A stretch of 63,834 bases of DNA, filler included, from Reclinomonas americana ATCC 50394 (lineage: Eukaryota): NCBI GenBank assembly GCA_048213135.1. It is 16 parts of 16 records of this genome, joined end to end, with 100 filler letters (N's around TTAATTAATTAA, not from the genome) between each part and the next. Parts side by side here need not be neighbours in the genome. Positions count along the whole stretch, not along the records: positions 1 to 2,379 come from AFZH01018777.1; positions 2,480 to 7,862 come from AFZH01018778.1; positions 7,963 to 14,049 come from AFZH01018779.1; 13 more parts are not named here. One strand, written 5' to 3'. The notes under the pieces were generated by a model. It saw nothing but the letters and a program-made list of their open reading frames with translations, ran no database searches and was not told where the DNA came from. The translations under genes were made by a program, and so were the position numbers. This document shows positions 1-14,049 of the stretch, piece by piece (the stretch's first letter is position 1; each line of letters starts with the position of its first letter).

Positions 1-3000
1 CGATCATCTCCACCACCCCCTGCCCCCCTTCCGCCACTCACCAAAAACTCGAAACGCCGACGTCGGCGAGATGTCATACAACGACACATCGTCGACCTCT
101 GGTGTCACCTCGAACACATAATCGGTACCACTCTGCAGTCTCAGCCCACTGGCACTCGTGGACAGCGTCAGCGCAGCCGTGTTGGTGCCGTTCAACGCAC
201 GAGCCAGCTCGGCGGCCGTGCCGCTGATTGCATCACGCGACGTCGAGACCGTGGAGCTGGCACCAGCAGTACACGCGCCGAGCACGTGCGTCGCCACACG
301 CCCAAGTGACACGAGCGAGCCGCCAGAGCTGGACCGTTGTTGCAGCTGCATCTTGTGTCAGTGCTGGCTGTCGCTACTCTATCGGATGGCCGTGCAAGAC
401 TCACACTAATGGTAAAGTTGGTGGCCTTGGGTGGTCCGTCACAAATCCACGTGACAAACAGCGGCTCACTGATCGACGCTGGTTCCGTCTGAGTGGCCGA
501 TGCACGACTTGCAATGCTCGGATCTGCAACGGTGAAAGAAATAGTGAATGTGCAGTCAATCGCTCGATGCCTTCCTCTTCCCATTGAGCAACTATGCTAC
601 TCTTGCTCTCCTGCTCCGTTCACGTTCCGCACAATCTCACAGTCGACTCTCCGTTTCTTGCTCTGCGTACGAATCCGCTGGCATGTCTCTTTCTCTGTCT
701 TCATCTTTCCTCCCCTTTAGTCCTCGCACAGTCTATGATGACACTCTATATCTCAGCTTTCGAGACCCTGTTTAAGCTCTCTCTGATTCTCTGATTCTCT
801 TTTTGTGCTTTCACTCATCAATTCTCCCTCTCGCCTCTCTCTCCTCTGCCACTAAACTCCTTTCTCACTCTTACTTTCTGTCTCTCTCTGTGTCTCTGTC
901 TCTCATCGTCCTCTCATTTCTCTCTCGCCACTGCCACTAGACTCCTTTTTCACTCTTCTGTTTCCTGTCTCTCTCTGTGTCTCTGTCTCTCTTCGTCCTC
1001 TCATATCGATATCTCTCTCTCCTCCGCCATTAAACTCCTTTCTCACTCTCTTACTTCCTGTCTCTCTCTGTGTCTCTGTCTCGCATCGTCCTCCTCCCCT
1101 CGCCCTCTCTCTTCTCTTTCCTGATCTTAATGCCACTACGTTTCTGCACTTTCTCCCTTTTCTCTTGTTAACCCACATTCTCTTCCACAAGTTCCCGCCT
1201 CTTTCTCCACTTCCTTTCTACCCCTCTTCCCCCCTTCCACTTCCGCCTTTCCCCTTCCCCTTTTCACCCTCACATTTCAGCATAAACGGATCCGTCAACC
1301 CCACCACCGTGCCATTCGTCGACGCCTCCGTCACCACAACTCGAAGCGTGGTGCTCGACGACACCAAGCCTCTCACCGCCTTCAGCGACGCATCCAGCTC
1401 GGCGGTCGACAATGTGCTGTCCACTCCACTGGCCAATTCTGCTTGTTTTACAAAGGTGCCTGGGACGCGAAAGGATGAGAAGTTATTCTGAACCACGATG
1501 CCACGGCTTGTGAGCAACACGCACCATTCACAAGCACCCACAGCTCCACGTTGACCTTCGTTGTCATCACGGCAGAAGAAAGCCAGTTGACCGAGTTGCC
1601 CGAGTTGGCATACACCACACTAGTGGCCAGCGTTGTGGTGCCGGAGGGAACACTTGTTGCCACACCGGGAGCGAGAGAGACAGAGGGAGGAGGCGGAGGC
1701 GGCGGTGGTTCTGTTGGTGCGTGAGTGTCACGTTTAAGCACATCAGCACGATCTCCATCACAAGGAGGAATCAGGTAACCTATCCCTCTAAACCTAACAC
1801 ATACACATCAACAGGCTTTTCCTTTCCGTGATAATCAACAGACAAGCTTCTTTCTGCTGCGTACTTTGTTGTTCTCATCTCCTCGTGCTGTATTTCCTCT
1901 CACACACTCATCCTACTTTGGCACAGTGTCAGCACCTGCATCGCCGATCGCTCACTCTCACCTCGTCTTTCCCCTCCACAATTCTCATGCACTTTGCCTC
2001 CTTTCCCTCTCCAATGCCCTCCCTTTGTTCTCTCTCCCTCTCCAATTTCCACCCTCTTCTCTCCCCTCTCCTTGCCCTCCCTCTCCTCTCCGTCCCTCTT
2101 TCATCCCTTTCCCTCCCTCTCCTCTTCCTTTCCCTTTCCCCTTCCCCTCCCTCTCCTCCCCTCCCTCCCTCTCCTCTCCCTCTCCTCTCCCTCCCTCTCC
2201 TCTCCCTCTCTCTCCTCTCCCTCCCTCTCCTGTCCTATTCCCTCTCCTCTCCCTCCCTCTCCTCTCCTATTCCCTCTCTTCCCTCTCCTCTGCTTCTCCC
2301 TCTCCTCACCTTCTCCAATCACCAGCGTGCTGTTCACCCGACCACCCTGCCCGTCATCCACCAAGATCACCACCTCCATNNNNNNNNNNNNNNNNNNNNN
2401 NNNNNNNNNNNNNNNNNNNNNNNTTAATTAATTAANNNNNNNNNNNNNNNNNNNNNNNNNNNNNNNNNNNNNNNNNNNNCCCACTGCCCGACAAGCGATC
2501 CACATTCACCCTCAGCTCCGTGGTAGCAATGTAGAATTTGTCCTGCGGCGCGCATGCCAAAGGTCAGCGATCTTTATCACCACAAACGAACAAGCAAACA
2601 GCAGCAGAGGGCAATGAAGAACCTGAGCAGCGCCGCCAACCAACGTAAATGTGTGCGACTGACAGCAGTTGGCGTCCAGCGCACGAAGACGCCCCACCAG
2701 TCCATTCCGCGACGCCGGACCCTTGAACAGCAGCGGTTCAATCGCCACCCCCACCGGCACCGCGTTCGCTGTCATGACAGGCATTGATGAGCGGCAGAAG
2801 TGGTATCGACAAGCATTCGTCGCATTGCACTCACCCTCCATGATGGAAAAGGTCTTCTCCAACCACAAGCCGCCCGAATCCGATGTGCGCACCGTTACCT
2901 CCAGCGGCTGGCCGCCAATATTCTCCTTCGTGAAGCGCAGCTTGTTGCCAGCAATGTTGAACAGGGCCGCCTGACCGCCTCCTCGAATCGAATATGTGAA

Positions 3001-12000: not shown

Positions 12001-14049
12001 GAGCGAACAATAAGACACCAATCAATCAACAACAGGCACGGTCAACGACGCACCTTCGCTGATTGAAAATGTGGCCGTGGCTGTCCCACCAGCCCCGTCG
12101 CTCACTTGCACAGTTACTTGCAGTCCGTTGCCCGCCAATCCTGCCACGTTTGAACGCAGATTCGTGCCGCTGATATTGAATGAGGCTTGACTCGTGCCAC
12201 CAGTAATCGTAAATGTCAGCGTCTGGCCCGTGTTGACATCCGTTGACGTCAGCGTGCCAATCACGTCGTTAAGGGCCAAGGGTGGTGAGTATAATGATGC
12301 GGAGAGTGTCGGCGCGGTAGGCAGCACATTGGCTGTCCACAAACATACAATGAGAAACTCGACGCAAAGCAATTTTCGCTGACTACAACTACAACTCACC
12401 TTCGTTGAGAGTAAATGTCGCGTTGGCTGTTCCTCCAGCGCCGTCGCTCACTTGCACAGTCACTTGCAGCATATTTCCCGTCAGGCCAGCCACGTTGGAG
12501 CGCAAGCTCGTGCCACTGATATTAAATGAGGCCTGGTTCGAGCCGCCCGTAATGGTGAACGCGAGAGTCTGACCAGTGTTTGGATCCATCGAGGACAGCG
12601 TGCCAATCACGCCGTTCAACGCGAGCGGTGGTATGTAGGTAGACGCCGAAAGGGCCGGCGCAGTGGGCAGCACATTGGCTGGCAGGAGGAAGAAGCAGGA
12701 GTGAGAAACTCATGGAACCCACAAGAACAAGACTCTCTCTCACCCTCGCTAACGGTGAACATTGTGCTTGCCGTGCCACCTGCTCCATCGCTCACTTGCA
12801 CGGTTACTTGAAGTCCATTGCCACTCAGTCCTGGCACATTGGAACGCAAGCTTGTGCCACTGATGTTGAACGAGGCCTGATTTGTTCCGCCAGTGATGGT
12901 GTATGTTAGCGTCTGGCCAGTGTTCGGATCCGTCGACGACAGGGTGCCGATCACTCCGTTCAAAGCCAGTGGCGGTGCATACGTCAAGGAGGAGAGTGTC
13001 GGTGCGGTAGGTGGCACATTGGCTGTCACCAAAGCAGAGAAGGTGAGAAGCAGGACTAGGACAGACAATCGGCGCACAGCGCACCTTCGCTGATGGAAAA
13101 CGTGGTACTATTCGTTCCTCCTGCACCGTCACTCACTTGCACCGTCACCTGCAACGTGTTGCCCGTCAACCCCGCCACACTCGAGCGCAGACTTGTTCCG
13201 CTAAGATTGAAAGAAGCCTGGTTCGCGCCGCCGGAGATGGAGAACGTGAGCGTCTGGCCAGTGTTAATGTCCGTCGAAGACAGTGTTCCAATAACGCCAT
13301 TCAGTGCCAGTAGTGGCGGATAGGTGGACGAGGAGAGCGTGGGGGCGGTCGGAGCGGTGTTCACTGCACGACAGACAGCTCTCCCGTTCAGAAGAGGAAC
13401 TCAACTGACGGAGCACATGATACACACCAACTGTCAGACTTGAAGCACCCACAGTCTGGTACGAAGCAGAAGATGGCCTGAGGAGAGAGAACAGAGAACG
13501 GTCAGCTGGCAGTGCACCTCTGTGAAGAAATAACAAGAACATCGCACGTACCATCTTGCACACACTTTGTAGCTTGTTCCAGAGGGCACCGTGGCCGCAT
13601 TGATTGTCAACACGACACTCGTGAACGGACTCACGGGCGCCACAGAACTCGTGCTACCAACTGGAGTTGGTGATGTGCACGTCGTGCTGGAGATAATGTA
13701 CCCCACAGAATCGCCAGATGAATTCTGCAGGTTGGTGCCGGTGACCGTCAATAACACTCCGTTGGAGGATGCAATGGACGCGGGTGAAAAGCTGTTGTAG
13801 GCCGGAGTCGGAATTACCACAATCGTGGTGCTAATCGGGCCAACAGTAGACCCAGGCACCGTAAACAACAGCGTAAACGACCCAGTGCCGGTGATTGCCA
13901 GAGAAGAGAATGTGGCGACACCCGACGCATTCGTCGTGGCCGTGACGCCACCGCTCACGGAACCCGTGCCACTCTGAATCGACGCCGTAACAACGACACC
14001 GCTGACCGCAACGCCGGTGGCATCCAGTAGCTGCACTGACGGCTGCGTT
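1..14049 (-). CDS. Giant extracellular protein: N-terminal Ig/IPT-like domains, ~26 bacterial-type cadherin-like repeats (~93 aa), then Ser/Thr-rich beta domains; multi-exon, partial at both ends
   Basis: Repeat consensus NVxPTAPTLSxSxYxPPLALNGVIGTLSSTDPNTGQTLTFTITGGTNQASFNISGTSLRSNVAGLTGNGLQVTVQVSDGAGGxxSxTFTISE matches the cadherin-like pattern (N-x-P-T..LS, GTLS..DxD, F.I.G..L, V.V..xD.GG, FTI). Exons are joined by GT-AG phase-1 introns. The 5' end is lost at gap 14050, and the 3' end probably runs off the window (donor G|GTGAGT near 41). Confidence 0.85.
849..1095. repeat. Degenerate intronic tandem repeat (~85-90 bp unit, 3 copies)
   Basis: CCACTAAACTCCTTTCTCACTCTT...CTGTCTCTCTCTGTGTCTCTGTCTC..CGTCCTC recurs at about 849, 934 and 1026. 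Confidence 0.7.
2380..2479. other. Assembly gap linker (first of 15 identical 100-nt spacers)
   Basis: N44-TTAATTAATTAA-N44, with stops in all six frames. Others start at 7863, 14050, 18540, 21199, 31220, 33149, 37018, 39898, 47877, 56488, 57664, 59005, 60878 and 62583. Confidence 0.98.
8600..13363 (-). repeat. Homogeneous tandem array of 14 ~279-nt exons, each one cadherin-like domain, separated by ~55-80-nt introns
   Basis: Exons 13085-13363 and 12744-13022 are each 279 nt. Exons end GAR-(G/A)|GT and start AG|NN-AAY, with a period of about 345 bp. Confidence 0.92.

Follow-up and report, generated by a model that had tools for sequence, protein, structure and literature searches.

Structure of the gene

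We analysed a 63,834-nucleotide (nt) stretch of DNA from Reclinomonas americana ATCC 50394 (assembly GCA_048213135.1; hereafter the window), made of 16 records joined by 100-N fillers, and describe a minus-strand gene in it that is built around a long array of cadherin-like repeats. Three-frame translation combined with splice-site scans resolves the array, running from 13363 down to 2310, into exactly 26 repeats (R1–R26). The N blocks within R16 and R26 are of zero length, with paralogous copies continuous across both; 26 is an exact count because these blocks conceal no sequence. The joined reading frame from 14049 to 42 spans 2,908 codons with no stops, compared with 44 and 131 stops in the alternative frames of a near-final gene model, and continues beyond both limits of the 2310..13363 interval to which the gene had earlier been assigned. 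The gene is real and well formed.

All 25 inter-repeat introns and the two flanking ones, checked singly, are GT..AG introns of phase 1 that interrupt the same codon. Single-exon repeats measure 279 nt (R1–R14) or 282–291 nt (R15–R22 and R25), and R23, R24 and R26 each carry one additional phase-0 intron at a common internal site. The earlier note had described about 26 repeats, mostly one exon of ~279–290 nt each between same-codon phase-1 introns, with an extra internal intron in three downstream repeats; boundary by boundary, that description is accurate. The array is bipartite, with a young block (R1–R14; protein identity among repeats 66–85%) followed by an old block (R15–R26; identities mostly 30–52% across R15–R25, in a comparison without R16 and R26). 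The young block is uncharged and rich in Ser and Thr (29% Ser plus Thr, 0.9% Lys plus Arg), a spacer-like composition. Long introns are few in this gene (7134-7788, 5936-6494 and 3732-4310); they sit in the old block and are packed with simple or local tandem repeats. Given that copying one unit together with its intron copies the phase too, 25 equal phases do not represent 25 independent events, and the symmetry of the exons needs no splicing explanation.

The gene extends onto contigs at either side. The sequence that starts at 14150 is not genuinely adjacent to its 5′ end, since contig C3313 lies between; by contig numbering, one more contig is probably skipped before 21299, and neighbours across N blocks are not always genuine. 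At its end, C3313 codes for a signal-like stretch of hydrophobic residues together with a glycine-rich domain (PF21722 Gly_rich_2, 39.9 bits; cut-off 24.3). In a paralog on contig C488, the glycine-rich domain runs within one exon into immunoglobulin (Ig)-like and TIG-like domains that match 14049–13552; the TIG match of the head described here has an E value of 0.01, under the Pfam cut-off. The exon that follows window position 42 lies on contig C3309 and encodes a membrane helix and a basic stop-transfer run; proline-rich exons come after it. The helix has a hydropathy of 1.85 over 21 residues, against an ectodomain maximum of 1.5; a family scan of the membrane exon returned 0 families, and the tail is proline-rich as judged by eye. 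The predicted product is a single-pass membrane protein of an estimated 3,550–3,600 residues, with the putative order signal peptide, glycine-rich tip, Ig-like domain, TIG-like domain, stalk of 26 cadherin-fold domains, membrane-proximal region, membrane helix and proline-rich tail. A cadherin-type domain is about 4.5 nm long, and the stalk would form a spacer of ~110–120 nm that holds a binding tip off the cell, with the proline-rich tail linking it to the cytoskeleton. Coordinates are listed in Table 1.

Table 1. Positions of the parts of the cadherin-like gene within the window
Feature	Positions	Strand
Head exon 2, 3′ part: Ig-like domain and most of TIG/IPT-like domain; phase-2 intron at end	13552..14049	-
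50-nt exon finishing the TIG-like domain; phase 2 to phase 1	13428..13477	-
Young block R1–R14: fourteen exons of 279 nt, each encoding a single cadherin-fold domain; phase-1 introns 55–78 nt long; variable copy number	8600..13363	-
Crossover tract within exon R1	13135..13155	-
Old block R15–R26: twelve divergent repeats; R16 and R26 interrupted by zero-length N blocks	2310..8530	-
Extra phase-0 intron in R23	3732..4310	-
Extra phase-0 intron in R24, site as in R23	3330..3396	-
Extra phase-0 intron in R26, site as in R23 and R24	2543..2622	-
Membrane-proximal exon with short proline run; phase 1-1	1525..1779	-
Membrane-proximal exon; phase 1-1	1274..1459	-
Membrane-proximal exon; phase 1-0	405..523	-
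Final ectodomain exon within the window; phase 0-1	42..345	-
N block where the 32,935-base contig C3313 is left out of the window	14050..14149	.

Fold and relatives of the repeat

Given 22 aligned repeat exons, AlphaFold2 produced an all-beta model with a predicted local distance difference test score (pLDDT) of 93.5. When this model was compared with 48,161 chains, the best 50 were all cadherin-family entries (top Z 11.6; root-mean-square deviation 2.1 over 92 residues), and Foldseek agrees on the cadherin fold, with a best E value of only 1.8e-3. The model thus supports the cadherin-like fold that had been proposed for the repeat. Identity to animal cadherins in the structural alignments is only 9–22%. 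Scores stayed below the gathering score of Pfam PF00028 (best 17.7 bits versus 28.8, in one of ten repeat exons scanned), and an NCBIfam scan of 22 repeats placed no family near its cut-off.

A profile of the repeat matched 16,251 entries of a protein library at E ≤ 0.001. The best per-domain scores belong to two euglenid proteins (89–92 bits), followed by prokaryote-type repeats (up to 70 bits), whereas the best score against solved animal cadherins is 22 bits. The earlier note had called the repeat bacterial-type: it is indeed far nearer to bacterial repeats than to solved animal cadherins, but euglenid repeats are nearer still, and by profile score the nearest relatives are euglenid, then bacterial. 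A signature of aromatic-x-Pro-Pro and D-x-N occurs in 95% and 96%, respectively, of repeats of this genome and in 93% and 100% of 14 euglenid repeats, compared with 0% and 14% of prokaryote-type ones. A quick unrooted tree of 101 repeats (98 columns, no animal rows) placed 42 of our own rows and 14 from euglenids on one side and 45 of prokaryote type on the other, with a Shimodaira–Hasegawa-like approximate likelihood ratio (SH-aLRT) support of 97. These comparisons point to a eukaryotic YxPP subfamily of cadherin-like domains, shared with euglenids and missed by Pfam. The insertion characteristic of animals and fungi is absent from the EF-1alpha of the host, which supports the host being a protist and not an opisthokont, in line with the non-animal origin claimed before. 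A piece of HSP90 had no match above 78% identity, and its named neighbours at 72–75% belonged to scattered groups (haptophytes, sedges, a discobid and green-algal datasets). Oomycetes are reported to possess true cadherins (PMC2926784).

The resemblance to each group of relatives is partial. The euglenid proteins P0125 (Euglena longa, a EukProt entry) and P0063 (a cluster with Eutreptiella entries) share the aromatic-x-Pro-Pro and D-x-N signature and the loss of the other calcium motifs, but in them ~8–9 repeats precede Big_5 and further domains, and they are without the tip, anchor and tail of this gene. Giant bacterial surface proteins with cadherin domains (P0002, Silvanigrellaceae; P0024, Chitinophaga; P0160, Rhodopirellula) resemble it in having homologous tandem repeats that form a long stalk under a distinct tip. 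However, they keep XEX, DXD and DRE-type acidic motifs in 84–87% of 2,488 repeats, are recognised by Pfam as Cadherin and bear RTX or type IX signals, where the present gene has lost the XEX and DRE-type motifs and has introns, a membrane helix and a signal peptide of eukaryotic type. The long cadherins of animals (protocadherin-15, cadherin-23 and Drosophila N-cadherin) share the fold (Z 11.4–11.6) and the single-pass layout, but their canonical three-calcium motifs are not present in the repeats described here, which fall under the Pfam cut-off.

Calcium-site residues

The canonical calcium motifs of cadherins are listed as XEX, DRE, DXNDN, DXD and XDX (PMC7547225), with their roles also described in PMC5120219. 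Among 445 repeats of this genome, the linker Asn is kept in 94%, the first Asp of DXD in 99%, an Asn at the second DXD position in 96% and the Asp of XDX in 95%. Conversely, the Glu of XEX is found in 0% (Pro replaces it in 96%) as against 96% of 300 sampled prokaryote-type repeats, a DRE-type motif in 0% as against 84%, and the acidic linker motif DXNDN in 1%. Euglenid repeats show the same calcium-residue pattern. The repeats therefore retain only the residues predicted to form calcium site 3. The linker of PCDH15 EC5-6 shows a like pattern of losses and retentions and is described as holding one calcium, at site 3, with variable angles between domains (PMC7547225). By this analogy we infer that each junction would bind at most one calcium ion, at site 3, and that the array would form a flexible rod.

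Length variation between haplotypes

Two haplotypes are present in the assembly, where an unrelated stretch of 1.9 kb recurs once, at 97%. Genome searches for the repeat returned 2,243 and 2,156 first-look candidates, 150 of which were scored in each search, and with two haplotypes this corresponds to roughly a thousand repeat units per haplotype. Six copies of R25 (91–100% identical) pair by their flanks into three loci, and in each copy the old twelve-repeat block is constant, with its repeats in an unchanged order. The young block is not: it has 14 units here and 17 on contig C5458, and 15 on C751 and 10 on C209, so that its size differs in two of three gap-free pairs. When the short introns are clustered, they form a barcode for each array that recurs every five units. 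Pair identity is ~90% in the array versus 93–97% in the flanks. The arrays on C56 and C264 hold at least 50 full-length repeats each, gaps preventing exact counts. Other tail subfamilies of the repeat occur at G000:C36:76000-86000, C210:13000-20000 and C482:42000-51000; they differ in their internal introns and include some domain pairs without an intron between.

It is conceivable that these differences are assembly errors, or that the arrays are independent paralogs with a stable repeat number at each locus. The assembly is fragmented, and the larger arrays (C20, C36, C56 and C264) have N gaps and inverted pieces. However, the young blocks compared are gap-free, the longest exact run common to two exons of an array is 39–65 nt (21 nt at the breakpoint), the unit 1/E-class intron junction recurs on three contigs and the flanking genes pair one to one. 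We consider this explanation very unlikely. The suggestion of a variable-length surface filament is thus upheld, with the variation seen in the DNA of the haplotypes (14 versus 17 units).

One change in length could be mapped. R1 is a chimera of two units of C5458: as far as about exon base 208 it follows unit 1, and beyond base 229 it follows unit 4. Across the tract between, units 1 and 4 share an exact match of 21 nt, and intron 1 of the window is identical to intron 4 of C5458. Taken together, these observations show that the three-unit difference arose by crossover inside homologous exons; in this one event, length changed by recombination between similar exons and not within introns. Near-identical introns at three different loci and 40-nt patches matching different units show further exchange between loci. 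Unequal crossover and conversion among repeats would alter the stalk by whole domains, and recombination among repeats would let different tips and ends join one type of stalk.

Splicing and selection

The earlier note read the symmetric exons as being skipped during splicing, such that one gene would give many stalk lengths. Dscam is a receptor diversified by splicing. In keeping with skipping, the single-exon repeats all have lengths divisible by 3 and phase 1-1, and could be left out in frame. Across 463 full-length repeats in the fetched loci, a lenient splice-site search found phase 1 at both domain boundaries in 455, comprising 445 with AG and GT sites and 10 with GC donors; seven lack a boundary intron and one lies at a contig end. 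Donor sites are heterogeneous, which also favours skipping, as does the reported alternative splicing of brown algal ROCO repeat exons (PMC11378527). However, 380 short introns have a median length of 67 nt and lie beside exons of 276–294 nt, the opposite of the short exons and long introns that accompany exon skipping, with few exceptions, in a survey of 65 eukaryotes (PMC6142364). Broken exons are not tolerated in the arrays inspected: none was found, and the sole stop among the 463 full-length matches reflects an earlier donor, not a lesion. The 149 partial matches comprise 139 that are gap-cut or intron-split, one weak match and nine in another tail subfamily, the latter falling outside the lesion inspection. 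Finally, tandem duplication accounts for the symmetry without splicing, and length differences exist at the DNA level already. We therefore regard exon skipping as an unlikely source of variable length. Intron retention was likewise rejected as a length switch, with the 380 intron lengths falling into modulo-3 classes of 139, 114 and 127 without clear excess.

The note also raised a variable antigen. In a broader form of this reading, the repeats would serve as an antigen or recognition surface, and viruses, predators or a host would drive their diversification. The sheer size of the family, the patchwork exchange among units and loci and the faster divergence of arrays than flanks would fit such a role. 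Ratios of nonsynonymous to synonymous substitution (dN/dS), however, are low in all five comparisons: 0.17 for 13 allelic exon pairs, 0.14 for eight old-block pairs, 0.14 and 0.20 for sister loci and 0.13 for 91 within-block pairs. These values indicate that the repeat exons are under purifying selection, although as whole-exon averages they could mask a few selected sites. They contradict the proposed antigen, the spacer-like composition of the young block also speaks against it, and we hold this possibility to be quite improbable.

The interpretation that we consider probable is that of a constitutively spliced, single-pass stalk gene with 26 cadherin-fold domains, whose length is altered by recombination among repeats. 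Several points weigh against it. The splice sites are predictions from the DNA; the head is joined over an unsequenced gap of ~115 codons on the strength of synteny and of an intact paralog, that of C488, and a single-sequence structure model of it was unusable (pLDDT 45). The third pair of loci, C311 and C488, shows no difference in young-block size (19 units each), and the second breakpoint, between C209 and C751, can be placed no more closely than near unit 3, where the signal is mixed. The pairs could be recent segmental duplicates and not alleles, given the lower identity of the array than of its flanks, and calcium site 3 may be weak or empty, since the second DXD position is Asn and not Asp.

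Exon modules in other proteins

The same type of stalk and anchor is found with a glycine-rich tip at this locus and at C311/C488, and with a cysteine-rich tip at C209/C751. The latter tip matched no Pfam family; an Atlas match of 0.92 to a mostly bacterial cluster was set aside, its recognition value of 1475 being under the trust level. On C111 and C140, read by eye, a glycine-rich head leads through one or two repeats and a phase-1 donor to a probable beta-propeller without an anchor. A TIG domain from elsewhere in the genome scores above the Pfam cut-off; of its 33 full-length matches, 22 are 1-1 exons, 18 of them close paralogs, and on C22 a TIG exon lies between cadherin-like 1-1 exons. 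Exons with phase-1 introns on both sides, postulated earlier as modules, are thus reused in different proteins.

The contig C22 also holds a ~9-kb higher-order unit (C22:22001-42000) of NHL-like, cadherin-like, TIG and PAN/apple-like exons, all but TIG named by eye, and TIG exons similar to those of C22 recur on many contigs.

Three observations count against a general 1-1 rule: the TIG domain of the gene itself is not a 1-1 exon, some repeats of the family are fused or split, and glycine-rich linkers are reported to favour phase 1 in any case (PMC8001218). As a baseline, nine rough junctions in HSP90 and translation-factor genes fall 4/3/2 into phases 0/1/2, too few to weigh much.

Other features of the stretch and assembly

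A large fibronectin type III repeat protein is encoded at 40097-46544 (+) in few long exons, with a membrane helix at its end; unlike the cadherin-like gene, it does not have one domain per exon. An S-adenosylhomocysteine hydrolase-like gene lies at 15000-16500 (+), with an NAD-binding domain match of E 2.9e-14, and frames at 51800-55900 (-) presumably resemble a voltage-gated cation channel. Two contigs of more than 1.5 Mb (G000:C1 and C2) contain unbroken EF-Tu-like and HSP90-like frames and are probably bacterial genomes inside the assembly.

Precedents and significance

Arrays with one repeat per exon that grow by unequal crossover are already known outside animals, as described for Tetrahymena, where thousands of genes contain arrays of 90-bp exons (PMC6564038), and for brown algae, which shuffle and splice leucine-rich repeat (LRR) exons (PMC3341825, PMC11378527). 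The Tetrahymena LRR arrays and the brown algal arrays of ROCO and tetratricopeptide repeat (TPR) exons share with ours one repeat per exon, a single intron phase, growth by unequal crossover and a non-animal eukaryotic host. Their units, however, are short solenoid repeats (in phase 2 in Tetrahymena), where the unit here is a whole extracellular beta-sandwich domain in phase 1. ROCO genes are furthermore reported to combine diversifying selection with alternative splicing (PMC11378527), as opposed to the purifying selection indicated for this gene. Searches of the open literature found no paper on this repeat family.

In animals, symmetric modules have been linked with skipping by Patthy (PMC6335736), and a review describes the shuffling of class 1-1 extracellular modules as practically restricted to animals (PMC8001218). 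Compared with those metazoan modules, the present case differs in a host that is non-opisthokont by EF-1alpha and in only two domain types shown; its one mapped event is recombination inside exons, and 7 of 463 repeats are fused without an intron. We tentatively propose, as a possibility that we rate somewhat below an even chance, that a protist outside the opisthokonts has independently assembled a set of class 1-1 extracellular modules in the manner of animals, comprising the cadherin-fold and TIG domains and probably others, with ~1,000 cadherin-fold exons per haplotype that would form flexible one-calcium surface rods of allele-dependent length, their tips and anchors exchanged by recombination among repeats.

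This genome offers a test, outside opisthokonts, of the supposed restriction of class 1-1 shuffling to animals (PMC8001218), and its two haplotypes allow single gain-or-loss events to be mapped to the base. The cadherin fold would be extended to a eukaryotic subfamily shared with euglenids, for which a precise structural prediction follows: one calcium per junction.

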